Part shown: positions 40,631-53,799 of the stretch, piece by piece | Layout: every line of letters starts with the position of its first letter | Numbering within the stretch: the stretch's first letter is position 1 | Source: an uncultured Clostridia bacterium | GTDB taxonomy: Bacteria; Bacillota; Clostridia; TANB77; UBA1234 | Reading direction: 5' to 3' | NCBI GenBank assembly: GCA_947164995.1 | Contig: CAMUYU010000002.1 | Location: 3,909-67,908 of the forward strand | DNA: 64,000 nt | Program-made: the position numbers and the translations under genes | Notes under the pieces: generated by a model | The model's database searches: none | Told to the model about the DNA's origin: nothing | Seen by the model: the letters and a program-made list of their open reading frames with translations, nothing else

Positions 40631-41905
40631 ATGTTTAGTAATGTTTTAGATTATAACAAGATAGTAATTGATAAAAATGGGGTTAAAACAAGAAGAGAAG
40701 GTATCAAATTGTACATTGATTGTATTTATAAGAACAAGACTTATGCTCAGAATTATAGTGGAGATGTATTATCTGTAATGATACCTGGGTCTGGACTTCA
40801 GGGCGGATTTAGACCGGTTGGTTCGAAAAATGGAAAGTATCCTACTCATGTTGCACTTTTCTCAACTAATAAAGATCCTTATTGGAGAGATGAATTAGAT
40901 GAGGAATTAGGTTTGTATATTTATTATGGGGATAATAAAAACCCCGGAAGTGAGTTGCATAGCAAAAAAGGAAATAGAATTTTAAAAGAAACTTATGAGT
41001 ATGTATCATCAGATTCATTTGAAGAAAGAAAAAAAATTGCTCCATTTTTTTTATTTGATCGAGATAATATTGGTGGAGTAAGATTTAGAGGTTTATTGAT
41101 ACCAGGATACAAAGGAATTCCGGCAAGAGAATGGCTGACTGCACTATGGGCAAAACGAGATGAGGGGGGTAGATTTCAAAATTATAAAGCAATATTTACA
41201 GTACTTGATACATCAAGTGGTAGCAAAGCTTATCCAAATGATGCTTCAATTGATATAAGATGGTTAGATGATATTGCTTTCGGAAAAGCTTATGAGAGTA
41301 TATATGCCCCAGTGGCATGGAAAAATTGGGTAAAAAATCCACAATGTTATAAACCATTAAAAACGAACGTATCACCTAAAATACGTTCTCAAGCAGATCA
41401 ACAACCCAAGCCAGAAGAAAGAGAACAAATAAAAATGTTAGATATGATTGTAAATTATTTTGAAAAAGATAGGACTAAATTTGAACCAATGGCAATAAGA
41501 TTAGCAATGTTATCTGACAATAATATTTTTGAGGACCCAAAGCAGACTCGAAAAGTCAAGGATGGAGGAAGAGATGGAATTGGTAAATATAGAATAATGA
41601 GTGGATTAAGCAATCCACTTCATACGACATTTGCAATAGAAGCAAAATGTAAAAAAAGAGATAATGCGGTTCATGTTCATGATACTGCAAGACTTATTTC
41701 TAGAATAAGACATCGACAATTTGGAGTATTTGTTACTACGTCATATGTTGACGAATACGCCTACAAAGAAATAATAGAAGATGATCAACCTATTTCAATA
41801 ATTGCGGGCAAAGATATTATTGACATATTATCTAAAGTGGAAGAAGTTCGAAATTGTGAACAATTACAGCAGTATTTAGAAGCAAATTTTCCAAAAGAAA
41901 AATAG
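40631..41905 (+). CDS. Restriction endonuclease with a C-terminal Mrr-type PD-(D/E)xK domain and an N-terminal putative DNA/modified-base reader
   Basis: The C-terminal part reads GGRDGIGKYRI...TFAIEAKC...FGVFVTTSY, with D...E-x-K spacing as in Mrr-cat. The N-terminal 250 aa are not assignable by eye. Confidence 0.65.
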   Translation: MFSNVLDYNKIVIDKNGVKTRREGIKLYIDCIYKNKTYAQNYSGDVLSVMIPGSGLQGGFRPVGSKNGKYPTHVALFSTNKDPYWRDELDEELGLYIYYGDNKNPGSELHSKKGNRILKETYEYVSSDSFEERKKIAPFFLFDRDNIGGVRFRGLLIPGYKGIPAREWLTALWAKRDEGGRFQNYKAIFTVLDTSSGSKAYPNDASIDIRWLDDIAFGKAYESIYAPVAWKNWVKNPQCYKPLKTNVSPKIRSQADQQPKPEEREQIKMLDMIVNYFEKDRTKFEPMAIRLAMLSDNNIFEDPKQTRKVKDGGRDGIGKYRIMSGLSNPLHTTFAIEAKCKKRDNAVHVHDTARLISRIRHRQFGVFVTTSYVDEYAYKEIIEDDQPISIIAGKDIIDILSKVEEVRNCEQLQQYLEANFPKEK

Positions 41906-41922
41906 AATGGGAGTCATATATT

Positions 41923-43041
41923 ATGAAGAAAATAAAAGTTTTTGAAACATTTTCTGGAATTGGTGCTCAAGCCAAAGCGTTAAAAAAAGCTAAAATAGAC
42001 TATGAAATTGTTGCCACTAGTGAGTGGTTTATCAACGCAATATTAGCTTATGATGCAATTAATTGCAGCGATGAAAAAATAGAAGTTCCGAACTATAAAG
42101 AACAAGTAAAGTATTTAAAAAAATTTACATTTAGTAAGGATTCTGTTACACCATTTAAAAATATAGAAAAATTATCTAAAAAAGAAATTGAAAAATTGTA
42201 TATTGCAAATAAAAGAAGCAAAAATCTAGGCTCTATAACTGATATTCATGCGAATATGATACCTAAGCATGATTTATTAACATATAGTTTTCCTTGTCAA
42301 GATTTGTCTACAGGTGGAAAAACAAGAGGTATGAAAAAAGGTTCGGGTACTAGATCTGGCTTGCTATGGGAAATAGAGCGAATTTTAAAGGAACTAAAAA
42401 AAGATAATCGCTTACCAAAGTACCTTTTAATGGAAAATGTGAAGGCAATATTGGCGGATTCTAATTCAATAGATTTTAATATGTGGAAAGAGTTTTTATC
42501 TAGATTAGGATATCGCAATGATGTTATGGTACTATCAGGCATAGATTTTGGTGTTCCTCAAGATAGAGAAAGATGTTTCATGATTAGTGTTATGAATGGC
42601 AAAAAAAATCCATTTGATGATATTAAAACTAAAAAGATGAAAGAAAAAGACATTCCCAAGTTCTTAAAATTAGACTATTCAAATGAAGTATTTAGAAAAG
42701 AGGCTGATGAGGCACAATTACCTAGAACGATATCACGCGAAAAGATGTGGAGTATTAATAAAAGAGATTTGAATAACTTAACTTTTTTTAATACAATAAC
42801 TACAAATATGGACAGGCAAAATAATGCTGGAATGATAGCATATTCTGGTCCAAAAGGGGATTCATATAGACTTCTTACAGCAAGAGAAGCTTTTTTGATG
42901 ATGGGCTTCAGTGATAAGGATTATGAAAATGTTAGAGAGCTTGATTTGAGTTATAGGAAGATGAATAAATTATCAGGAAATTCAATAATTGTTCCAGTTT
43001 TGGAAGCAATTTTTAAAGCAATGATTAAGGAGGATAAATAA
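41923..43041 (+). CDS. DNA (cytosine-5)-methyltransferase
   Basis: Motif I is FETFSGIGAQ, motif IV SFPCQDLS, motif VI ENVKA, motif VIII QDRERCF and motif X GNSIIVPV. Confidence 0.9.
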   Translation: MKKIKVFETFSGIGAQAKALKKAKIDYEIVATSEWFINAILAYDAINCSDEKIEVPNYKEQVKYLKKFTFSKDSVTPFKNIEKLSKKEIEKLYIANKRSKNLGSITDIHANMIPKHDLLTYSFPCQDLSTGGKTRGMKKGSGTRSGLLWEIERILKELKKDNRLPKYLLMENVKAILADSNSIDFNMWKEFLSRLGYRNDVMVLSGIDFGVPQDRERCFMISVMNGKKNPFDDIKTKKMKEKDIPKFLKLDYSNEVFRKEADEAQLPRTISREKMWSINKRDLNNLTFFNTITTNMDRQNNAGMIAYSGPKGDSYRLLTAREAFLMMGFSDKDYENVRELDLSYRKMNKLSGNSIIVPVLEAIFKAMIKEDK

Positions 43042-43043
43042 TA

Positions 43044-44075
43044 ATGCATAAAATATGTTTGCCCATTGATACAAAATCTTTATATATGAACATTTTAAAT
43101 GATAATGAAAGTGGGCATACTGCAACCGTATCAACTCCAATAAAACAGGGTAATTCAACAAATGATAAATTGATGGATGTATACAAAATTCCAAAGCAAA
43201 TATCAACTAAAGATAAACCTGATTTGGTTGAACAATTATTGAAAAACGCTAAATCAAAAGTTAGAATTAATAACATTTTTATTTTTAATAATATATATGT
43301 AAATATGGAACCAATAGAAGTAAATAATTATAGTTTTATTATATTTATCAAAGAAGAAATTGATCAAAGTAAAGTTCAGTTTGGAAGAATAAAATTGCAC
43401 TATCCAATAACCTTTCGATATGAAGATGATGAAGTGAATATTAACAATAAATATATATTTGGGCAAATATCCAAAAAACTAAATGATTATGCTTTTGTTG
43501 TAAATTCGTTTGAGTATTTAATTGAAAAGGATATTTTAAATTTTAATATCACAATTATTGGAGAAAATAAGATTCCTTACTCAAAGGTTTTTGTTAATAA
43601 CAAAGGAGTTGGCAATAAGTATACAAATACATTCAATGAAGTGGCTGATTCATATGATATGGAAATAATTTCATTAAAAAAGGTATTTGGTCAAATGGTT
43701 TCTCCTGTAAATTATATGGACTATATGTTAAAAGCAAAAGAATTAAGCAATGAATATATTAAAGATTTTCTGGATAATTATGGCGCAAGAAAAATAAAAG
43801 ATATTTCTTCTATGTATACTTACTCTCTATATGATTTTGAATATGAAATTAATGGAAAAAAAAGATTCGTTCTTGTTTTTTATACGGCATCTAAAATGGA
43901 GTATTTTAATATAACTTCTAAAAAGATGAGATTTTTAAGTGACTTTAAAGACAAAATAGATGTAATTATTATTTCAAATGTTTTTGAAAAGTATAAAATA
44001 AGCAGATATAGTGTGGATGAAATATTAAATTTTACTAAAAGTATTAATTCAATGATGATGAGAAAGGAGTTTTAA
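43044..44075 (+). CDS. Orphan protein (343 aa) inside the MTase-linked cassette
   Basis: The ORF starts 2 nt after the MTase stop and abuts the next start. It is N/I/K-rich and no catalytic motif was identified confidently. Confidence 0.55.
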   Translation: MHKICLPIDTKSLYMNILNDNESGHTATVSTPIKQGNSTNDKLMDVYKIPKQISTKDKPDLVEQLLKNAKSKVRINNIFIFNNIYVNMEPIEVNNYSFIIFIKEEIDQSKVQFGRIKLHYPITFRYEDDEVNINNKYIFGQISKKLNDYAFVVNSFEYLIEKDILNFNITIIGENKIPYSKVFVNNKGVGNKYTNTFNEVADSYDMEIISLKKVFGQMVSPVNYMDYMLKAKELSNEYIKDFLDNYGARKIKDISSMYTYSLYDFEYEINGKKRFVLVFYTASKMEYFNITSKKMRFLSDFKDKIDVIIISNVFEKYKISRYSVDEILNFTKSINSMMMRKEF

Positions 44076-45527
44076 ATGAGTAATCTAAAAAAGCAAGTTC
44101 CGCCAGCCAAGTCTTTTATAAGTGGAATACGTTCAATAGGATATACATTTTCAACTTCTGTGGCAGATATTATTGATAATAGTATTACTGCAAAGGCAGA
44201 TATTATAAGCATCTTCTCCAATCCTTTAGAAAAACCATATTTTGCAATATTAGATAATGGTCTAGGAATGACATATAAGGAGCTTGAAAATGCCATGGTA
44301 TTTGGCTCTGATAGAACTAGTAAGATTGATGATGAGCATGAATTAGGAAGATTTGGTTTGGGATTGAAAACAGCTTCATTAGCTCAGTGTAGGAAAATGA
44401 TTGTTATTGGTAAAAACAATAGTGAAGTTACAGGAATGTTCTATGACTTAGACATAATAGAAGAAAAAAATGAATGGCTTATGGGAGTTTTATCTGATGA
44501 AGAACTGAAAGAAGTTCCACATTTTGAGAACTTGCTTGAGTATGAAACGGGAGTTTTAGTTGTTTGGCAGGAGTTCGATAAGTTAGACTCTTTATCATCT
44601 AATTTTGTTAAGTCTTTTAGAGAAGCTGTAGCATCTGCAAAAAAACACGTTGAGCTGGTTTTCCACAACTTTTACAATACAGTAAATATCTTTTTCGATG
44701 GTGCAAGAATTGAAAAAAGAGATCCTTTTTTACTGGATTCCGCACCAAGGCAACAAACAGGAAGAACCACTTGTATTAAAATTGATAATTCTATTATAAA
44801 AGTTACACCATATACTCTTCCTTTTGCTAATACACTAACTAGAGAAGAAAAAGAATTGCTAGGTAATGTTTCTATATATGATGAGCAGGGTTTTTATATT
44901 TATAGAAATAATAGGCTTATTAATTGGGGAAGCTGGCTTCATATGAATGTTAGAAGTGAACTAGCTAAACTTGCTCGTGTTAAAGTTGAGATACCTTCAT
45001 CGCTTGATATAGAATGGAGCCTTGATGTGAAAAAGTCAATGGCTCAAATTCCAGATAAAATAAAAGACCAAATCAAGGCGGCTCTCAAGGACTCTGTTTC
45101 AAGAAGCAAAAAAACAATAAGATTTAAGGGAGTTCAAGAAGACAAATATAATTTAAAGATTTGGAATAGAACAAAGTTAAGGGACAATAAAGTAAAGTAT
45201 GAACTAAATAAAGAAAATCCACTATATTTGATTCTTGTTGAAAGAATAGATGATGAAGCTAAAAAATACTTAAACTTACTGATTGACCAAATAGAAACAG
45301 GATTACCGAAATATCGTGTGCAAATTGATGTTGATGATGGTATTGAAGTTGTAAATGATAGTGACATTAAATCTAAAAATGAGATTATTGAACAATTGGT
45401 TGAAATATTAAAAAATATACCTGAGACAAAAAGAAAGAGTGTTCTGTCAATCATGCTTGGTATTGATATTTACAAAAGTGTGGCAGATTGCAAAGATGAA
45501 ATTTTAGAAAGGTTAAATGATAAATGA
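44076..45527 (+). CDS. GHKL-superfamily ATPase (HATPase_c_3/MORC-like)
   Basis: The N-box is ADIIDNSITA, the G1 box LDNGLGM and the G2 box GRFGLGLKTAS. Confidence 0.8.
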   Translation: MSNLKKQVPPAKSFISGIRSIGYTFSTSVADIIDNSITAKADIISIFSNPLEKPYFAILDNGLGMTYKELENAMVFGSDRTSKIDDEHELGRFGLGLKTASLAQCRKMIVIGKNNSEVTGMFYDLDIIEEKNEWLMGVLSDEELKEVPHFENLLEYETGVLVVWQEFDKLDSLSSNFVKSFREAVASAKKHVELVFHNFYNTVNIFFDGARIEKRDPFLLDSAPRQQTGRTTCIKIDNSIIKVTPYTLPFANTLTREEKELLGNVSIYDEQGFYIYRNNRLINWGSWLHMNVRSELAKLARVKVEIPSSLDIEWSLDVKKSMAQIPDKIKDQIKAALKDSVSRSKKTIRFKGVQEDKYNLKIWNRTKLRDNKVKYELNKENPLYLILVERIDDEAKKYLNLLIDQIETGLPKYRVQIDVDDGIEVVNDSDIKSKNEIIEQLVEILKNIPETKRKSVLSIMLGIDIYKSVADCKDEILERLNDK

Positions 45528-48352
45528 ATGATTTGAATGATATCGAAAAAAAAGCATATAGGGTATTAAAGACATTACTATATGAAGAAAAAAAATCGCT
45601 TGAAAGCATAGAAGAGAGTGTAAATATTATTAAGTGCATGAAACCATTTTCTGATTATGAAAATATAGAAGAAATATGCGATAAAATAAAAAGCGCATAT
45701 ATTGCTAATATAGGTATCACGAATCCTTCAGCTGAGTTTTTGTTAAAAAATGACGAAAATGAAAATTGGATGGATGGCAGAGATGTTGAAGAATGCAATT
45801 TTGAAAGATACATAGATTATCTACGTAATGAAGATTTCCCAGAAGAATCAATAGAAAAAATAATCCATTCAACAAAAGAAATATTAAGCAAGTGTGCAGA
45901 TCCAGAAGGTAAGAATGTTAATAATTTGAAGAAAAAGGGTTTGGTAATGGGAGATGTTCAATCAGGAAAAACAGCTAATTATACCGCTTTGATTAATCTT
46001 GCTACAGACTATGGATATAAAGTTGTAGTTTTACTTGCTGGCATGACTAACTCGTTAAGAGCTCAAACTCAAGAAAGAATAGACGAAGGTTTTATAGGAG
46101 CTGAAAGTTCATCTATAGGAAATGCTAAAATTGTGTTTGTCGGTATTGGAAAAGATGAACAAAAATACTATGCTATTCCAATGACAAATGATAAGAATGA
46201 TTTTAGAAAAGATGTAAAAAAATCATTAAATAGTACAGCATCTGACTTTAACAAGCCATTAATATTAGTTGTCAAAAAGAATAAATCTGTACTAAATCAA
46301 GTAAAAGAATACTTGAAACCTGGGCAAAACGATATTACTTCTGACAATGTACTTATTATAGATGATGAATCTGACAATGCTTCTGTTAATACGAAGGATG
46401 CTAATAATCCGTCCATTATCAATTCATTAATTAGAGATTTGTTTAACAATTTTAATATTGCAACATATATAGGTTATACAGCTACCCCTTTTGCAAATAT
46501 ATTTATTAATCCATACGATGATGAGTATAATAGGGATTTGTTTCCTTCTGATTTCATAGTACAATTACATGCTCCATCAAATTATTTTGGAGCTAGTAAG
46601 GTTTTTTCAGTTGACGAAAATGGTGAATATAAGCATATTTGTAAGCTAGACCCAATGGAAAAGTATTTTTTGCTAAATACACATAAAAATGGTGATTCTA
46701 TTTTTAAAGAATTGCCAAATAGCTTAAAAAAAGCAATAAATGATTTTGTTTTAACAAATGTTATAAGAACATTGAGAGGAAAAGAGCTTGTTCATAGGAC
46801 AATGATGATAAACATATCTATGTATAATGATATACAAAGACAGATAGAAGATAAAGTAAATGGATATGTAGATTATTTAAAAAATACAATCGAACAGACG
46901 TATTGTTTAGCTTTTAAAGATTTTATTAAAGATCCTGAAATGCAAAACCTGTATAATTCTTTTTCAAATGACAGTTTTTATGCCAATGCACGAACTGAGT
47001 TTTCTTGGGATCAAATTCAAAAGAAACTAAATTCGGAAATAAAACAATTTGTTGTTACTACTATAAATAATGATAACAAAAAGAATCGTTTTAATTATGA
47101 TGATTACAAAGATAGTGGTGCGAGAGTTATTGCAATTGGGGGATATGTATTATCGAGAGGATTAACGCTTCATGGGTTAATGATTAGTTATTATAATAGG
47201 AGTTCTTCAATGTATGATACTATTCTTCAAATGTGTAGATGGTTTGGATATAGAAATGGTTATGAAGATTTATGCAGAATATATATGACACAAGAAAGCA
47301 TCGATAATTTCGGTGACGTAATTGATGCCATTGAGGATTTAAAAAACCAATTTAGACAAATGAAAATACAAGGAAAGAAACCAGAGGATTTTGGTCTTAT
47401 GGTTAAACAATCTCCGAAAAGATTAAATACACAACTATTTATTTCTTCTGCAATTGAAAGGTTTCAAAAAATGAATATTACATCGCAGAATAAGATGAAA
47501 AATACAGAAGATAAAATAATAAGGTTTGATTATGGATGCTCTATAGCTGATACATCAAAATTGTATTTGTCAGAAGATGCCAATAACAATAATTGGAATG
47601 CTTTTTATGATATGGTTAACGAACTAAAACAAAAAGAAATGTTTTTCTCTTTTTATCAACTTAAAAATCATAAAGAACGTTTCATGATTCAAAGAGTTCC
47701 TAAGAATTATATAGCGACTTTTGTTTCAAAGTTAAAGATACCTGAAGCAAATATGACTTTTGATATTGAATTAATTACCGATTATATTAAAGATTCAAAA
47801 GGAATGCCAGAGTGGGACGTAGTTGTGGCAACGGGTGATGAAAAGGTCGATGGATTATTGAATGAGAGCTGGCTTTTTGAAGAAAAAAGTTTTCCATTAA
47901 ATGTACGTAGTTTTGAAATAACTCCACCCCATGAGAATATCATAAGGATATCTGGGAGTAATAATAGACTTGCAAACCCTGGAATATTTGTAAGTGGTTT
48001 AACGATTGAACAAGAAATCGAAACAGACAAAAATTTTGAGAAAAGAATTAGCGAAAATCCTGAAAAAAGCTCAAAAAAAACAAAAACTGCCTCTGATTAC
48101 CTTAATATATCTAGAAGACCTCTTTTAGTTATTCACCCCGTTTATTTAAGAAAAACTGGAGAAAAAAGCGAATATGAACAAAAAGCAATTTCTGTTTTCA
48201 ATAATTCATCAAGACCACTATTGGGTGTTGCACTAGGATTTCCGAAAAATGATACAGGAGAAACTGTTGTTTATACATTAAATAGAATTAAAATCGATGA
48301 AATATCTAAGAGTATTGTAAATGAGGAAGGTTATGATCCAAATGAAGATTGA
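45524..48352 (+). CDS. Z1-domain P-loop NTPase (942 aa)
   Basis: Walker A is GDVQSGKTANYT and Walker B LIIDDESDNAS. The C-terminal part reads GYVLSRGLTLHGLMISYY...DTILQMCRWFGYRNGYEDLCRIY, the Z1 signature as I recall it. An ATGA overlap couples it to the upstream gene. Confidence 0.75.
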   Translation: MNDLNDIEKKAYRVLKTLLYEEKKSLESIEESVNIIKCMKPFSDYENIEEICDKIKSAYIANIGITNPSAEFLLKNDENENWMDGRDVEECNFERYIDYLRNEDFPEESIEKIIHSTKEILSKCADPEGKNVNNLKKKGLVMGDVQSGKTANYTALINLATDYGYKVVVLLAGMTNSLRAQTQERIDEGFIGAESSSIGNAKIVFVGIGKDEQKYYAIPMTNDKNDFRKDVKKSLNSTASDFNKPLILVVKKNKSVLNQVKEYLKPGQNDITSDNVLIIDDESDNASVNTKDANNPSIINSLIRDLFNNFNIATYIGYTATPFANIFINPYDDEYNRDLFPSDFIVQLHAPSNYFGASKVFSVDENGEYKHICKLDPMEKYFLLNTHKNGDSIFKELPNSLKKAINDFVLTNVIRTLRGKELVHRTMMINISMYNDIQRQIEDKVNGYVDYLKNTIEQTYCLAFKDFIKDPEMQNLYNSFSNDSFYANARTEFSWDQIQKKLNSEIKQFVVTTINNDNKKNRFNYDDYKDSGARVIAIGGYVLSRGLTLHGLMISYYNRSSSMYDTILQMCRWFGYRNGYEDLCRIYMTQESIDNFGDVIDAIEDLKNQFRQMKIQGKKPEDFGLMVKQSPKRLNTQLFISSAIERFQKMNITSQNKMKNTEDKIIRFDYGCSIADTSKLYLSEDANNNNWNAFYDMVNELKQKEMFFSFYQLKNHKERFMIQRVPKNYIATFVSKLKIPEANMTFDIELITDYIKDSKGMPEWDVVVATGDEKVDGLLNESWLFEEKSFPLNVRSFEITPPHENIIRISGSNNRLANPGIFVSGLTIEQEIETDKNFEKRISENPEKSSKKTKTASDYLNISRRPLLVIHPVYLRKTGEKSEYEQKAISVFNNSSRPLLGVALGFPKNDTGETVVYTLNRIKIDEISKSIVNEEGYDPNED

Positions 48353-49277
48353 TTTTAGAGATTTATTTGAAAATATTGGTAGTAATACAGATATTTTAAA
48401 AGCAATTGATAATGATAAGAATATAATGGTTTTGTATGGCTTATCAGAATTAAACAAAAAAAGATTAATTTTTGTTGTTGATAATGAAGTCGCAAATATT
48501 AATTCTACAAAAGTAATAAATGTTTGTATTTATAAGATTAAAGGCAAATGGTGGATTTGTTTTGATTTAGAAGAGAATAATTTTTCAAATTTGTTTTATA
48601 ACTTTTGTCAAGATATGTATGAATATGCTATTTCAGACTCATATAATAATCTTATGCTAAGAGTTATTGAAAGATTTGGAAAGTGGAAAGAAATGTTTCA
48701 AAAAGTTTCGAATAGTGAAATTTCAGAAGAAAAAGAACAAGGAATTTTTGGCGAATTGTATTTCTTGTATTCTTTTATGTTTAATAAGTATGGAATAGAG
48801 AAATCTATTTTGTCATGGGGAGGACCTGACAACAATAGTAAAGATTTTTCTAATGATAATACTTGGTATGAAATTAAAACGTCAGGCGCTTTATCAAAAG
48901 AAATTACAATCAGTTCTCTAGAACAACTCGATTCAGATGTGGATGGATTTTTGGTTAATATTAATGTGGAAAAAATGTCTAATGAGTTTTCTAACGGAAA
49001 GTCATCTGTACCAGAATTATTCCATTTGATTAAGGAACGAATTAAAGATGAGAATGTTAAAATTATTTTTTTAAGTAAAATTGTTGAATTGAATGTTGAT
49101 ACAGAATTATCTATTAACACACGCAAATATGATGTTAAATATATTAAAAACTATTTGGTTAACGATAGTTTTCCTAAATTAACAAAGAAAAACATTAATC
49201 ATTTAGAAATAACGGATGTCTCATATAAAATAGATATTCCTAGTTTAAAAAGATTTGAGGTAGATATGAATGTTTAG
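48342..49277 (+). CDS. PD-(D/E)xK-like protein (DUF4420-like)
   Basis: GGPDNNSKDF...WYEIKTS fits a D...E-x-K nuclease core. It overlaps both neighbours. The start could instead be 48321 or 48333. Confidence 0.55.
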   Translation: MKIDFRDLFENIGSNTDILKAIDNDKNIMVLYGLSELNKKRLIFVVDNEVANINSTKVINVCIYKIKGKWWICFDLEENNFSNLFYNFCQDMYEYAISDSYNNLMLRVIERFGKWKEMFQKVSNSEISEEKEQGIFGELYFLYSFMFNKYGIEKSILSWGGPDNNSKDFSNDNTWYEIKTSGALSKEITISSLEQLDSDVDGFLVNINVEKMSNEFSNGKSSVPELFHLIKERIKDENVKIIFLSKIVELNVDTELSINTRKYDVKYIKNYLVNDSFPKLTKKNINHLEITDVSYKIDIPSLKRFEVDMNV

Positions 49278-51357
49278 TTTGGAAGAGTATAGAAGTGGCT
49301 TTATAAATGATATAAAAATTGCTGCTTTACAGCAAGAGGACTATCCTCAAGAGGTATTTATCGACGAAATGACAGACTCATTAATTGAAGATTTTGCTTT
49401 AATTAATGGACTAGAGAAATGCTATTTTCCTTTTAACAAAGGAAATAGAGCTTTCAAAAATATGCAAATAGATGCTGGGTATTTGGATTTATCGATAAAC
49501 ACATTAGACCTTCTTATTTCTGATTTTAATCCTGATGAAATGGTTAGTATAACTAATGAATATATGAATATGAAAGCTCAATTAATGATTAATTTTTTTG
49601 AAAATGTTTTAAAAGGCTTTTTCTCAAAAGCTGAAGAAAGTAATCCTGCAGTTCAGTTGGCTTATGATATAAAAAAGAATCTTGCTTCTATATATAAAAT
49701 TCATTTAATTATTATTTCTACAAATTTATTAAGTAAGCGAATAAAGACTATTGAGTTCCCAGATTATTCTTTTAACAATACTCAATTCAAAGTTGAGCTA
49801 GATGTTATAGATATTCAGATGATATATAATTCAAAATTAAGTAGCTTCAAAAAAGAACCGGTTGTTATTAATACGGATGATTTTGGATTAAAGGGAATAC
49901 AATGCATTAAAGCTGATATTGGCACGAAAGACTATGAAGCTTATTTGGCTATTGTACCTGGAAGTTTTTTGTGTGACATATACAAAAAATATGGTGCTAG
50001 ATTGCTGGAGTCAAACGTAAGATCTTTTCTAAATGCAAAGGGAGCTGTTAACAAGGGAATAAGGGCAACTATTCTTAACGATAAGCAAAACTTTTTTACA
50101 TATAATAATGGTATTTCAACAATTGCTAAAAAAATCATTACTAAGAATATTTCTAATGAAGGACTATTTATTACTAGTTTTGAAGATTTTCAAATAATTA
50201 ATGGTGGACAAACTACAGCATCTCTTGCATCGGCAAATATTAAAGATAAAGCTTCGTTAGATAATATTTTTGTTCAGATGAAATTGACTGTAATTGAAAA
50301 AGACGATGCAGAATTTATTCATAATATTTCAAAATATGCCAATAGCCAAAATAAGGTAACTGCAGCCGATTTAAACTCTAATCATCCTTTTTATATAAAA
50401 ATGGAAGAGTTTTCTAGGAAGATATATACTTCTCCAGTAAATAATCAACCTTATCAAACTAGATGGTTTTTTGAACGAGCTAGAGGACAATATGACCAGC
50501 CAAAAATGAGTATGTCAAAATCGGATAGAGATAAATATACACGACAAAATCCAAAAAATCAAAAGTTTTCAAAAACTGATTTGGCTAAGTATTTAAATTC
50601 CGCAGAAATGAAACCTTATTCCGTATCTAAAGGTGCTCAATTATGTCTCGTAGATTTTCATGCTGAAATGGCTGAAAAATGGGAAAAGGACAAGTTGTTT
50701 TATAATGAACTATTCTTTAAAGAATTAGTTGCTAAAGCGATTATTTTTAAAGCTATAGAAAAAATAATATCTAATCAAGAATGGTATATTGAAAATAAAG
50801 CTTATAGAGCTCAATTAGTTCCATATACTTTTTCAAAACTGATTTATGAAATTAAAAATAATGATATGGAATTAGATTATAAAAATATTTGGGATAGACA
50901 AGAATTACCAAATTTCCTTGTTTCTGATATAGAAAAAATAGCTAAATTGTGTTTTGATGTTTTTAATGATCCTAATAGAACTTTTAGCAACATTGGAGAA
51001 TATTGTAAAAGGAAAGATTGCTGGAATAGCGTTAAGGATAAGATATATACTTTAAGCGAAACCTTAGTTAAGAATTTAATTTCAAAAGAAGAAGGTAAGA
51101 CTAGGATAACTAGTGCAAAGAAAGAAGAACGTTTGAATAAATCTATATATAATGAAGTTGAAATATTTCAATTAACAGATGATTATTGGAAAAAGATTAA
51201 ACGTATTGGCATGGAGCAGGGACATCTCAATGCGAAAGAAATTGATTTTATAGATCTTGCTATAAGATATTGTAGTGGATTAGAGACGATAACTCCTAAA
51301 CAAGTTGAAGCTATAATGAGGATTAAAGAAAAATTTGATGAACTGGGTATAAAATAG
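49270..51357 (+). CDS. AIPR (abortive-infection phage resistance)-family protein
   Basis: It has SNVRSFLNAKGAVNKGIRATI...FFTYNNGISTIA...IINGGQTTASL. It overlaps the upstream gene by 8 nt. Confidence 0.7.
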   Translation: MFSLEEYRSGFINDIKIAALQQEDYPQEVFIDEMTDSLIEDFALINGLEKCYFPFNKGNRAFKNMQIDAGYLDLSINTLDLLISDFNPDEMVSITNEYMNMKAQLMINFFENVLKGFFSKAEESNPAVQLAYDIKKNLASIYKIHLIIISTNLLSKRIKTIEFPDYSFNNTQFKVELDVIDIQMIYNSKLSSFKKEPVVINTDDFGLKGIQCIKADIGTKDYEAYLAIVPGSFLCDIYKKYGARLLESNVRSFLNAKGAVNKGIRATILNDKQNFFTYNNGISTIAKKIITKNISNEGLFITSFEDFQIINGGQTTASLASANIKDKASLDNIFVQMKLTVIEKDDAEFIHNISKYANSQNKVTAADLNSNHPFYIKMEEFSRKIYTSPVNNQPYQTRWFFERARGQYDQPKMSMSKSDRDKYTRQNPKNQKFSKTDLAKYLNSAEMKPYSVSKGAQLCLVDFHAEMAEKWEKDKLFYNELFFKELVAKAIIFKAIEKIISNQEWYIENKAYRAQLVPYTFSKLIYEIKNNDMELDYKNIWDRQELPNFLVSDIEKIAKLCFDVFNDPNRTFSNIGEYCKRKDCWNSVKDKIYTLSETLVKNLISKEEGKTRITSAKKEERLNKSIYNEVEIFQLTDDYWKKIKRIGMEQGHLNAKEIDFIDLAIRYCSGLETITPKQVEAIMRIKEKFDELGIK

Positions 51358-51405
51358 TGTAATAATGTTTTATTAGAAAGAAATTACAAATAATAAAGGG
51401 TTAAG

Positions 51406-51457
51406 AGTCTAGTTATAAAGGTGAGTTGATATAATGGCCTTGATAACTAGACTTTTT
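51406..51457 (+). terminator. Hairpin plus T-run ending the cassette operon
   Basis: The stem is AGTCTAGTTAT/ATAACTAGACT (11 bp) with a 26-nt loop, followed by TTTTG. The loop is large, so confidence is moderate. Confidence 0.5.
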
Positions 51458-51497
51458 GTGTGATAGAATACCCAAGTAACAGAGGGAAGGTATAAAA

Positions 51498-51815
51498 ATG
51501 AATGAATTAATGCTCAAAATTAAACAATTCAACGAAGAACGTGACTGGGATCAATTCCATTCACCAGAGAATTTAGCTAAGTCTATTTCAATAGAAGCGG
51601 GTGAATTATTGGAATGTTTTCAATGGAATGGAGAAAACTATAATAAAGAAGAAGTTTGTGAAGAATTAGCAGATGTATTTAATTATTGTTTTTTAATGGC
51701 AGATAAACTTGGTGTTGATCCTAAAGAAATTGTTCTAAAAAAATTAGAAAAGACACGACAAAAATATCCAGTTGAAAAGTCTAAAGGGGTTAGCACGAAG
51801 TACGATAAACTATAA
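51498..51815 (+). CDS. MazG-like nucleotide pyrophosphohydrolase (small all-alpha NTP-PPase)
   Basis: It has F..ERDWDQFHSPENLAKSISIEAGELLECFQW...EELADVFNYCF, the ExxE...ExxD pattern. Confidence 0.8.
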   Translation: MNELMLKIKQFNEERDWDQFHSPENLAKSISIEAGELLECFQWNGENYNKEEVCEELADVFNYCFLMADKLGVDPKEIVLKKLEKTRQKYPVEKSKGVSTKYDKL

Positions 51816-51831
51816 ACAATAGGGGATAATT

Positions 51832-53799
51832 ATGATAATATATGAAAATGTTAAAAGTGGATTTATTGCTGATTGGGCTAATAATGTATTAATCGATAAA
51901 ATAAAATCAGGATTAAAAAGAAACCATATAGGTGGTGGAGGTTATAGCGAACAGCATTCATGGGAAAACTCATTACCACGTGTAAAGAATATTATAAAGG
52001 ATTCTGGAATTCCAAATGATGCTGGAATTGCAATTGAATATAAATTGCCAACAACAAGTTGTAGAATAGATTTTATGATTTCTGGTTATAATGAAGAAGG
52101 AAGAGGAGTTATAATCGTTATTGAATTAAAACAATGGAGTAAAGTAGATAGAGTTGAAAATAGCTTTATGGTTCGTGCTTTAGTAAGTCAAAATCATGTA
52201 GAGGAAAAAGCACATCCCTCAAGACAAGCTTTGAACTATGTAGGGTATTTAGCCAATATGGTTGAACCTGCTGTTGAAGATAAAATAAGATTGTTTCCCT
52301 GTTCATATTTGCATAATTATTCTTTAAAGGAAAATGATCCGTTAATAGATTCAAAATTTAATACACTATTTCAAAAATCACCTGTATTTACTATGGATAC
52401 TGAAGATAAATTAACAGATTTTATTAAAAAATATATTAAAAAAGGCGATAGAGAAAAAGTAATATTTGACCTTGATAATGGTAATATTGTTCCATCAGCG
52501 AGATTGATAGATGACTTGTCTCAAATGGTAGAAGGGAAGAAACAATTCTATTTGTTAGACTCTCAAGAAGAAGTGTTTGAAAAAGCAATGGATATGGTAC
52601 ATGACGCTATTCGAAGCGGTGAAAAACATGTTTTAATAGTTAAAGGTGGTCCAGGAACAGGGAAGTCTGTAATTGCTATACAACTGTTAGTAAATTTAAT
52701 AAAAGAGAAAATAATAGCTAATTACACAACTCCAAATAGTGCACCACGTAATGTTTATTTTGAAATGCTAAAGAATAATGATGATCAAGAATATGTTAAC
52801 AACTTGTTGGCTCCATCATATAATTATATGGATTCGAAGACTAATGATATTCCTGTTGTTATTGTAGATGAAGCACATCGTTTAAAAATGAAAGCATTCG
52901 TTAGGGGTGCAACGAGGGGAAACAATCAAATAAACGAAATAATTAATGCAGCGCTATGTTCTATTTTCTTTATTGATGAGGATCAAAGGGTTACTGATAA
53001 TGATATTGGATCCATCGAAGAAATAAAAAGATGTTGCGAGTTAAATAATGTTAAAGCTCAATATATAGATGAAAAAGAATTAATAAGTCAGTTTAGATGC
53101 AAAGGTTCGGATGGATATTTAGCTTGGCTTGATGATGTACTTGAAATTAGAGAAACAAATAATAAGATGCTAGATACAAAAGAGTACGATTTTAGGATAA
53201 TTGATGACCCTGATGAACTAGATAGATTAATTGTTGAACGAAATATCGATAATAAAGCAAGGCTTGTTGCCGGTTATTATAAAGAATGGGTTTCAAAGAA
53301 AGATAAAACTAAATTCGATTTTGAACTTTCAAGTACTTTTAGAAAGAAATGGAATTTAGATGGACAAACTAAACCATTTGCAATTAGAGAAAGTTCTATT
53401 AATGAAATTGGATGTATTCATACTTGTCAAGGTTTGGAATTTGACTATGTTGGAGTTATATTAGGTGATGATATAAGATACGAAAATGGAAAAATTGTTT
53501 CAGATATAACCAAGAATGCCAAATCAGATCGCACTGCTATGGTTCATACAAAAGCTTTATATAAAAAAGAACCTGAAAAGGCTAAAAAGATAGCAGATGA
53601 AATAATTAAGAATACTTATAAAGTATTAATGACTAGAGGCTTATCAGGTTGCTATGTTTATTGTGAAGATAAAGCTTTGTCAGAGTATTTAAAAAGTAGA
53701 ATTATTTCTCATGATCCAGCTGATAATGCTTTTGCATACGAAGATAAACCAATTGAGTTACCAAAAGTTGCTGAAGATAATGATGAATATAAAGTTTAG
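51832..53799 (+). CDS. DUF2075-like P-loop ATPase/helicase-related protein with an N-terminal PD-(D/E)xK-like module
   Basis: The N-terminal part reads CRIDFMISG...VIIVIELKQW. Walker A is GGPGTGKSV and Walker B VIVDEAHRL. The C-terminal part reads IHTCQGLEFDYVGVILGDD. Confidence 0.75.
   Translation: MIIYENVKSGFIADWANNVLIDKIKSGLKRNHIGGGGYSEQHSWENSLPRVKNIIKDSGIPNDAGIAIEYKLPTTSCRIDFMISGYNEEGRGVIIVIELKQWSKVDRVENSFMVRALVSQNHVEEKAHPSRQALNYVGYLANMVEPAVEDKIRLFPCSYLHNYSLKENDPLIDSKFNTLFQKSPVFTMDTEDKLTDFIKKYIKKGDREKVIFDLDNGNIVPSARLIDDLSQMVEGKKQFYLLDSQEEVFEKAMDMVHDAIRSGEKHVLIVKGGPGTGKSVIAIQLLVNLIKEKIIANYTTPNSAPRNVYFEMLKNNDDQEYVNNLLAPSYNYMDSKTNDIPVVIVDEAHRLKMKAFVRGATRGNNQINEIINAALCSIFFIDEDQRVTDNDIGSIEEIKRCCELNNVKAQYIDEKELISQFRCKGSDGYLAWLDDVLEIRETNNKMLDTKEYDFRIIDDPDELDRLIVERNIDNKARLVAGYYKEWVSKKDKTKFDFELSSTFRKKWNLDGQTKPFAIRESSINEIGCIHTCQGLEFDYVGVILGDDIRYENGKIVSDITKNAKSDRTAMVHTKALYKKEPEKAKKIADEIIKNTYKVLMTRGLSGCYVYCEDKALSEYLKSRIISHDPADNAFAYEDKPIELPKVAEDNDEYKV

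Follow-up and report, generated by a model that had tools for sequence, protein, structure and literature searches.

A MazG-like pyrophosphatase gene paired with a DUF2075 nuclease-helicase gene: a conserved two-gene module of the defense-island type in an uncultured Clostridia bacterium

Gene structure and protein domains of the pair

In a 64,000-nucleotide (nt) stretch of contig CAMUYU010000002.1 from an uncultured Clostridia bacterium, analyzed at its full length and referred to here as the window, two neighboring genes on the forward strand encode a small MazG-like protein, predicted to be a nucleoside triphosphate (NTP) pyrophosphatase, and a large protein that joins a putative PD-(D/E)xK nuclease domain to a DUF2075 helicase core. 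A first-pass annotation, made from the sequence alone, had described the two genes as lying 16 nt apart with an upstream region of their own past the terminator of the preceding gene cassette; the coordinates are exact, and both a terminator-like hairpin and a promoter-like site were found in that region (Table 1). Since the small protein matches Pfam family PF12643 and the large one PF09848, the two open reading frames (ORFs) can be taken as real genes rather than chance frames, and both appear intact. The hairpin has a folding energy of -28 kcal/mol (z -5.17), and none of 200 shuffled sequences was equally stable. The promoter-like site, which shares bases with the hairpin's 3' arm, is no more than a match to the consensus, the count of such sites in the region being equal to the shuffle expectation. 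Both genes are preceded by good ribosome-binding sites (RBS). Downstream of the pair, the scan found no terminator-like site between the helicase stop codon (53799) and the start of an ArsC-family ORF (53821). This ArsC-family gene, 21 nt downstream, was considered as a part of the module and rejected, because its homolog (85% identical) in G004, a genome of the same genus, lies 5 kb away from the pair with other genes between.

Table 1. Features of the pair and of the genes preceding it; positions are those of the window (nt) and residues those of the protein concerned (aa, amino acids)
Feature	Position	Strand	Details
AspBHI-like 5-methylcytosine-dependent restriction enzyme gene	40631-41905		RE_AspBHI_N + Mrr_cat; same strand as the C5-methyltransferase gene
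C5-cytosine DNA methyltransferase gene	41923-43041		
343-aa protein gene (unk343)	43044-44075		first cassette gene; matches no profile library
HATPase (HATPase_c_3) / Z1 / DUF4420 / AIPR cassette	44076-51357		related to MzaB-E
Intrinsic-terminator-like hairpin + U-run (UUUUUGU)	51404-51455	+	RNA fold; end of the upstream Mza-like cassette
Promoter-like site TTGATA-18-(TG)TAGAAT for the pair	51440-51469	+	consensus scan; 10/12 matches, extended -10 TG
RBS GAGGGAAGG of the MazG-like gene	51482-51490	+	read from sequence; 7 nt 5' of the ATG at 51498
MazG-like gene	51498-51815	+	105 aa; DCTPP1-type all-alpha NTP pyrophosphatase (predicted)
16-nt spacer between the two genes	51816-51831	+	sequence; holds RBS AGGGGA of the helicase gene
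Nuclease-helicase gene	51832-53799	+	655 aa; PD-(D/E)xK + DUF2075
RecB/Cas4-like PD-(D/E)xK nuclease domain (putative)	51832-52617	+	aa 1-262; residues given in the text
DUF2075 / Schlafen-group-III-type superfamily 1B (SF1B) helicase core (predicted)	52624-53670	+	aa 265-613; PF09848 (SLFN-g3_helicase), E 2.4e-91
Walker A GGPGTGKS	52645-52668	+	aa 272-279
Walker B DEAH	52867-52878	+	aa 346-349
Disordered acidic C-terminal tail ending KVAEDNDEYKV	53704-53796	+	residues 629-655; pLDDT <50

The small protein scores above the Pfam cut-offs both for PF12643 MazG-like (E 6.9e-22; 77.9 bits against 27) and for PF03819 MazG (E 3.4e-5; 24.5 bits against 22), and the acidic motif of the family is present, which upholds its earlier designation as MazG-like. 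A sequence search of the PDB aligned almost its whole length with an archaeal pyrophosphatase (4qgp, 2.4e-18) and with mammalian DCTPP1 (6sqw/2a3q, 8.2e-17). The metal-ligand motif reads E33-x-x-E36...E56-x-x-D59, and in 39 helicase-linked MazG homologs E36, E56, D59, K82, Y90 and P91 are invariant, with E33 nearly so. W17, H21, W43 and Y63, which align with W47, H51, W73 and Y102 of mouse DCTPP1, are conserved in the same 39 homologs; conservation thus extends over the positions aligned with mouse W47, H51, E63, E66, E69, W73, E95, D98 and Y102. Judged by these residues, the small protein can be assigned to the DCTPP1 (house-cleaning) branch of the all-alpha NTP pyrophosphatases, as a bare catalytic core of 105 aa without a regulatory domain.

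In the large protein, the first ~260 residues have no Pfam match, and a PDB sequence search with the whole protein returned no match. The residues E69, D80, E98-x-K100 and Q132-x-x-x-Y136 are nevertheless invariant in alignments of 17 and 34 homologs, the QxxxY motif being a mark of RecB family nucleases. AlphaFold2 modeling of this domain gave a predicted local distance difference test (pLDDT) score of 90.5; its Foldseek matches in the PDB are all non-significant (best E 0.06), with SfsA, EcoO109I, Card1, BstEII and EndoMS, of the restriction-endonuclease fold, at the top, and the nuclease call for this reason rests on the invariant motifs, not on the fold. For the helicase part, Walker A, Walker B and the later helicase motifs are invariant in the homolog alignment, and the full-length model (pLDDT 77) finds SLFN11 (1.8e-8) and RecD (4.7e-8) as its best Foldseek matches, followed by RecD2, SLFN14, nsp13, Dda and Dna2, which indicates a probable SF1B core. 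The invariant motifs and the PF09848 match thus bear out both domain calls of the first-pass annotation, a PD-(D/E)xK-like nuclease and a DUF2075 P-loop ATPase. The motifs it had quoted (EAGELLE, ELADVF, IELK, GGPGTGKS, DEAH and a C-terminal one) were every one located in the translations, within IEAGELLE and EELADVF of the small protein and as RIDF...VIELKQW, GGPGTGKS, DEAH and CQGLEFDYVGVILGDD in the large one; both proteins look catalytically intact as far as their motifs tell.

The C-terminal tail of the large protein may act as a partner-binding or auto-inhibitory peptide. A tail motif [VILM]AE-x(2-5)-[YFW], typically VAE[DE]xxEY, occurs in 16 of 81 homologs, with MazG present or not, and the conserved ending VAE[DE]xxEY(K/R) was also seen at loci L018, L045, L066 and L087-L089. 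In two proteobacterial homologs (L025, 5801-6475; L049, 5801-6430) the protein continues into a C-terminal extension of ~170 aa that matches Peptidase_S24, of the LexA/UmuD-like self-cleaving type, at 28-29 bits (cut-off 23.3), and about a dozen further loci have C-terminal extensions of similar length. The S24 extension hints that, in this proteobacterial branch, the protein may be regulated by DNA damage or RecA.

Conservation, mobility and surroundings of the pair

The pairing of the two genes is strongly conserved, across phyla and in both directions of counting. Starting from the helicase, 80 loci were taken from contigs of one genome per species, with neighbors placed by tblastn coordinates; a MazG homolog on the same strand was found at 52 of them (39 upstream and 13 downstream), no more than 700 nt from the helicase at 51, the copy at L085 lying 2.7 kb off, and 41 of the 52 homologous pairs have a spacer of at most 50 nt or overlapping stop and start codons. 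About one third of the helicase homologs at these loci are solitary; 5 of the 28 MazG-less loci have too little flanking sequence. When 300 genomes were sampled evenly across the phylum, the helicase family turned up in only 3 others (4 loci), or about 1%, and with the window included all five loci carry a MazG-like match beside the helicase; by our own estimate, based on ~0.6 MazG-like matches per ~2.6-Mb genome, adjacency within 1.5 kb is expected by chance in well under 0.1% of cases. The pair is also present in all four relatives that have the helicase and in all three examined members of the window's own subclade (66-67% identity).

Starting from MazG, a metagenome scan with a motif specific to the DCTPP1-like subfamily was employed to collect 80 loci whose MazG is at least 50% identical to that of the window. 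A DUF2075 helicase adjoins MazG at 52 of the 64 informative loci, on the same strand at 50; the 16 others, among 28 helicase-less loci, were excluded for flanks shorter than 700 nt. About half of the partners belong to the same nuclease-helicase family, and the rest are DUF2075 helicases with another N-terminus, one of them GIY-YIG, so that MazG seems to be linked to the DUF2075 helicase core and not to any single type of nuclease. The expectation that the pairing would recur in other genomes is thus borne out by counts in both directions (52/80, 5/5 and 52/64), as is the description of the two genes as one module, their adjacency holding across phyla whichever gene is the starting point. Overall, the pair spans Bacillota, Pseudomonadota, Bacteroidota, candidate phyla and one phage record, and the helicase by itself extends further, to archaea and plasmids of archaea.

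PF12643 itself was tried as a proxy for the reverse co-occurrence and discarded as misleading, since it has matches in 161 of 301 genomes and the sampled high-scoring unlinked ones (17 of the 20 places fetched) are of a different subfamily that lacks the acidic motif; the scan was replaced by the subfamily-specific one. The family spans two very different groups, and linkage to the helicase is confined to the DCTPP1-like one. Its counterpart (L179-L195) occurs in roughly every second genome of the phylum, shows the consensus IEWLKAEL...WYGDLS, lacks the ExxE/ExxD catalytic motif and was never found beside the helicase.

Several loci depart from the simple two-gene arrangement. At L175 (3182-3973), L100 (3824-4618), L066, L020, L022 and L099-L101, an extra gene (~260 aa) or an interval of 330-980 nt separates MazG from the helicase, and the spacer seems to be a slot for additional cargo genes. 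Locus L178 (4001-8054) has the order helicase-MazG-helicase: a close relative of the window's helicase (66% identical) comes first, MazG next, and last another DUF2075 protein, 593 aa long and distinct from the first. At L111 and L115 (3480-4467), a MazG 73-74% identical to that of the window has no helicase near; 4 nt downstream of it lies the gene of a 220-aa protein without a Pfam match, which may be an alternative MazG partner.

The distribution of the helicase is patchy (4 of 40 relatives, at 46-47% identity). In its tree, bacteria and archaea are intermixed on short branches, and the helicase of the window has a long branch that marks it as divergent (0.86 substitutions per site). Homologs are carried on plasmids of Methanosphaera, Halalkalicoccus, Hymenobacter and Marivirga. 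Only 4 of 50,697 phage records match, one of them closely. The record of Microcystis phage Mwe-JY31 (L173, PP438423.1, 2657-4863), a 22-kb sequence deposited as a phage genome, contains the whole pair, both genes being annotated as hypothetical proteins only, with MazG 49.5% and the helicase 41% identical to those of the window. The helicase family can, on this pattern, be regarded as horizontally transferred and mobile. A rare family (~1% of genomes) with a patchy occurrence, located among defense genes and on mobile elements, is also not chiefly a housekeeping one found apart from MazG, which was the outcome that would have spoken against the first-pass annotation.

When the presence and position of MazG were mapped onto the helicase tree, at least 13-14 changes fell on well-supported branches. 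This repeated loss, with the helicase kept, suggests that MazG is an accessory not indispensable to helicase function. A Mantel test gave only a weak correlation between the identities of MazG and those of the helicase (r 0.30, a value that none of 2000 permutations reached), and strict co-evolution of the two genes was rejected as unsupported by this value. The clearest case is the comparison with G004: its MazG is 89.5% identical to that of the window at the protein level, the helicase 45%, and the corresponding nucleotide identities are 72-84% for MazG, ~55% for the helicase and ~40% upstream of MazG. Both pairs lie upstream of one ArsC-family gene, directly in the window and at the 5-kb distance in G004, where a NERD-HRDC protein gene and other genes stand between. 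With MazG 90% and the helicase 45% identical at one site, we read the locus as a shared hotspot at which the helicase module was probably exchanged independently of MazG.

The pair is the last member of a series of defense genes in the window. Its immediate neighbor is an Mza-like cassette of five genes, counting that of the 343-aa protein (43044-51357), whose NCBIfam scores are far below the equivalog cut-offs (e.g., 216 against 850 bits). Cooperation of the pair with this cassette had been suggested as a possibility. A tblastn search with the Mza-like proteins of the window detected Mza-type genes beside the pair at only 1-2 of 164 other loci (one unk343 homolog, one MzaB), and the link was accordingly rejected. 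Before the cassette, a 5-methylcytosine-dependent nuclease gene stands beside that of a 5-methylcytosine-writing enzyme; the two enzymes presumably have non-overlapping specificities. In G004 (L091, 10407-17147, G004:C52), genes for a C5-methyltransferase, a McrB-like AAA_5 protein and McrC precede MazG and the helicase. A C5-methyltransferase gene was thus found nearby in the window, in G004 and in one metagenome contig. A general association of the pair with C5-cytosine methyltransferases was considered and rejected, as only 3 of 164 other loci have such a gene, and the 5-methylcytosine theme is treated as local to the window's genus.

No tRNA gene was found in the window. In both the window and G004 the pair occupies a chromosomal hotspot that also holds restriction systems, and neither structural nor integration genes of a phage were noted around it. 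The nearest neighbors of the pair in other genomes match PADLOC families that include AbiEi, SoFic, type II MTase and several PDC candidates; these are family tallies from a scan of 125 proteins, given with neither the fraction matched nor a control, and thus carry no enrichment figure. When the pair itself was run against PADLOC, the check proposed with the first-pass annotation, the large protein gave partial Nhi and AbiO matches and no model matched the MazG protein.

Proposed function and competing explanations

The pair is not new as a candidate defense system. A supplementary table of Millman et al. 2022 (bioRxiv 10.1101/2022.05.11.491447, Table S2) lists a candidate "Pyrophosphatase", represented by SG192 from Bacillus firmus LK28 and SG193 from B. 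thuringiensis Lr3/2, which is absent from the main-text discussion of that paper. SG192 has the gene order of the window, with the pyrophosphatase (98 aa) first and the DUF2075 protein (643 aa) second; the pyrophosphatases are 46% identical (E 2e-27) and the DUF2075 proteins 44% (E 4e-116), with the nuclease and Walker motifs all aligned over the 399 residues compared. By this similarity, the pair of the window is best regarded as an ortholog of the SG192 candidate, already noticed in 2022 and unvalidated. What the window adds is the exchange of the helicase allele beside a conserved MazG, a MazG subfamily combined with several DUF2075 architectures, and the association of the two genes in both directions. 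Within the literature library searched, no paper names both DUF2075 and MazG; MazG stands among the predicted defense domains, none of them validated as of 2026 (PMC13092281).

We propose, at roughly even odds (about 0.5), that the pair is a mobile two-gene operon of the defense-island type in which a DNA-degrading effector resembling Nhi-like, a single-gene anti-phage nuclease-helicase of the same survey, works together with an accessory sanitizer of modified dCTP (deoxycytidine triphosphate). The proposal starts from what was observed at the locus and its homologs, namely the gene structure, the intact catalytic motifs, the two-way adjacency, the mobility and the independent swapping of modules. 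The 655-aa nuclease-helicase, of Dna2/Nhi/Nhi-like design, would be the effector: it would load on invading or replicating phage DNA, translocate with ATP and degrade it. We infer this DNA-degrading role from the Nhi-like architecture and the intact motifs. The 105-aa DCTPP1-type MazG would be the accessory and hydrolyze non-canonical, 5-modified dCTP to the monophosphate. Two purposes can be envisaged: modified bases from degraded foreign DNA would be kept out of the host chromosome, sparing the cell from its own modification-sensitive nuclease, or phages would be starved of the modified dCTP that they use to cloak their DNA against nucleases.

What we infer is that the pair acts against phages, that the large protein targets DNA and that the pyrophosphatase has modified dCTP as its substrate. 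A sanitizer of modified dCTP is suggested by the house-cleaning branch to which the small protein belongs, by the conservation of the DCTPP1 residues and by the preference of DCTPP1 for 5-modified dCTP, the misincorporation of which it blocks, as described in PMC7162842 and PMC13291643. On the effector side, loss of a DNA methylase lets phages escape Nhi-like, which implies that this effector class may be sensitive to DNA modification. The repeated loss of MazG also fits an accessory role better than that of an effector or antitoxin. Taken as a claim of its own, that the DCTPP1-like enzyme clears dCTP of the 5-methyl, 5-hydroxymethyl or a similar type and so averts autoimmunity or denies phages their cloaking nucleotide, the pool-sanitizer part is tentative and less likely than not.

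Several points weigh against this proposal. The main counter-evidence to a defense role is the negative assay of SG192, the only experimental test of an orthologous pair: its "observed defense" is marked x, i.e., no defense against 12 E. coli and 14 B. subtilis phages, and for SG193 the table states "Cloning failed" (Millman et al. 2022, 10.1101/2022.05.11.491447). The same survey covered 45 candidates against 26 phages and allows that unverified ones may be defensive in other conditions (10.1101/2022.05.11.491447). Support from the fold of the nuclease domain is weak (the best Foldseek E of 0.06), and its model shows no evident modification-reading domain. The PADLOC models Nhi (residues 196-404, E 6e-12) and AbiO cover only part of the large protein, with E values reaching 1e-12 to 1e-13. 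MazG was lost many times with the helicase kept, many Bacillaceae copies being solitary, and with a C5-methyltransferase near the pair at only 3 of the 164 other loci, 5-methylcytosine is not a general theme.

Among the alternatives, the one closest to the first-pass annotation is nucleotide-depletion defense, in which MazG would destroy canonical deoxynucleoside triphosphates (dNTPs), mainly dCTP, on infection and the helicase-nuclease would serve as sensor or second effector. MazG-type enzymes hydrolyze (d)NTPs, the depletion of dNTPs by dCTP deaminase or dGTPase is an established defense, and the two genes are tightly coupled. Hydrolysis of dCTP itself is also described for DCTPP1 (PMC7162842). 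We nonetheless consider depletion doubtful and an unlikely mechanism: as a bare core without a regulatory domain, MazG is a poor candidate for a triggered depleter, a constitutive loss of canonical dNTPs would hurt the host, the enzyme is of the DCTPP1 house-cleaning type, its repeated loss while the helicase stays is the opposite of what an effector would lead one to expect, and the SG192 pair gave no defense.

A role in genome maintenance, with a Dna2/RecB-like repair or recombination nuclease-helicase encoded beside a house-cleaning pyrophosphatase for damaged dNTPs, would be analogous to the mycobacterial mfd-mazG operon and is somewhat less probable again. A RecB-like QxxxY nuclease joined to an SF1B helicase is a design of repair enzymes too, with Dna2 and RecD among the fold matches; house-cleaning of oxidized dCTP by mycobacterial MazG and the mfd-mazG operon have been described, SG192 showed no phage phenotype, and proteobacterial homologs bear the S24 (LexA/UmuD-like) C-terminal domain. 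However, a family present in only ~1% of the phylum's genomes and 4 of 40 relatives, rampantly transferred between domains, carried on plasmids and in a phage record and set among restriction and abortive-infection genes is hard to reconcile with such a role, and helicase alleles only 45% identical within one genus at one locus are atypical of housekeeping repair.

The overlapping stop and start codons of many pairs suggest a fixed stoichiometry, and the failure to clone SG193 and the Nhi-like construct SG142 may hint at toxicity, as would be expected of a toxin-immunity pair in which MazG restrains a toxic nuclease-helicase, e.g., by removing an activating nucleotide, and the two form an abortive-infection switch. 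We regard this as improbable, however, given that many helicases have no MazG nearby, that even near-identical ones occur with and without it (L018 versus L066), that the identities of the two proteins correlate weakly (the Mantel r of 0.30), and that MazG is also paired with unrelated N-terminal nuclease types, unlike tightly co-evolving toxin-antitoxin pairs.

MazG enzymes and all-alpha superfamily dCTPases are familiar from phages. Least probable of all is a mobile-element weapon, carried by phages, plasmids or islands, in which the nuclease-helicase would degrade the DNA of the host or of rival elements while MazG, in the manner of the T4 dCTPase gp56, would adjust the supply of dCTP to suit the modified DNA of the element itself: the Mwe-JY31 record, the plasmid-borne helicases and the MazG described from cyanophages (PMC6850273) are in its favor, but so few phage records match (4 of 50,697, one closely), and the pair of the window and of G004 is surrounded, at its chromosomal hotspot, by restriction systems, with neither structural nor integration genes of a phage noted.

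Weighing these explanations, we retain the DNA-degrading effector with an accessory sanitizer as the preferred interpretation. The first-pass annotation had called the pair a two-gene defense or stress module; a conserved module of the defense-island type is what emerges, one that is not tied to the Mza-like cassette and is probably no simple nucleotide depleter, and both its status as a 2022 candidate and the architecture shared with Nhi and Nhi-like had been missed. The two genomes of one genus, with a nearly identical MazG beside very different helicase alleles at one hotspot, provide a natural experiment. If the pool-sanitizer part holds, it would amount to a new principle, nucleotide-pool hygiene built into nucleic-acid-degrading immunity, with human relatives of both parts (DCTPP1 and the SLFN11-type helicase).

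Comparison with known systems

The system nearest to the pair on the contig is Mza (mzaABCDE), relatives of which adjoin it on the same strand in the window; the two are set apart by the terminator-like hairpin between cassette and pair, and in G004 McrBC takes the position of the cassette. The small protein shares a near full-length alignment and the ExxE...ExxD motif with mammalian DCTPP1 (RS21-C6; PDB 6sqw, 2a3q, 2oig, 7mu5) and with archaeal 4qgp. Unlike DCTPP1, it lacks the eukaryotic N- and C-terminal extensions, and its coupling to a nuclease-helicase is without a mammalian counterpart.

The large protein shares its helicase with the Schlafen proteins of group III (SLFN11, SLFN14), PF09848 being their helicase domain and SLFN11 the best structural match of the full-length model. 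The Schlafen RNase domain is the defining domain of bacterial Schlafen defense proteins (PMC13056530), and a Pfam search of the large protein found no such domain (AlbA_2-type, Ex4ExK). RecD2 and Dda are further SF1B helicases among the fold matches. Dna2 has the same order of a RecB-like nuclease followed by an SF1B helicase; no Dna2-like Fe-S cysteines are evident in the window protein.

The closest architectural counterparts are Nhi and Nhi-like, and on its domain order the large protein can be said to have their architecture, with the nuclease and the DUF2075 helicase in one polypeptide. Nhi of Staphylococcus epidermidis (SERP2475; Bari et al., bioRxiv 10.1101/776245) is a multifunctional nuclease-helicase with demonstrated anti-phage activity; its PD-(D/E)xK domain lies at the N-terminus, and its helicase motifs overlap DUF2075. 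Unlike the pair of the window, it has no pyrophosphatase partner. Between Nhi and Nhi-like there is no sequence identity, according to Millman et al. 2022 (10.1101/2022.05.11.491447). Nhi-like (SG141, Bacillus cereus FSL H8-0482; Millman et al. 2022) likewise begins with a PD-(D/E)xK domain bearing the E, D, ExK and QxxxY motifs and continues with a DUF2075 SF1 helicase. Pairwise BLASTP of the window protein with SG141 gave 22% identity (E 4e-10, over residues 39-350), with the nuclease and Walker motifs shared; the low identity suggests that Nhi-like is a different subfamily. It was validated as a single gene without MazG (a 2331-bp construct with a 611-aa gene), and another Nhi-like construct, SG142, is the one that was not clonable (10.1101/2022.05.11.491447). 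Unlike the single-gene Nhi and Nhi-like, the pair co-encodes MazG, in the window as at 52 of 80 homologous loci; should it prove defensive, these nuclease-helicase effectors would gain a nucleotide pyrophosphatase as a conserved accessory of metabolic type, and the pair might explain how effectors of the Nhi type escape self-damage or counter DNA hypermodification.

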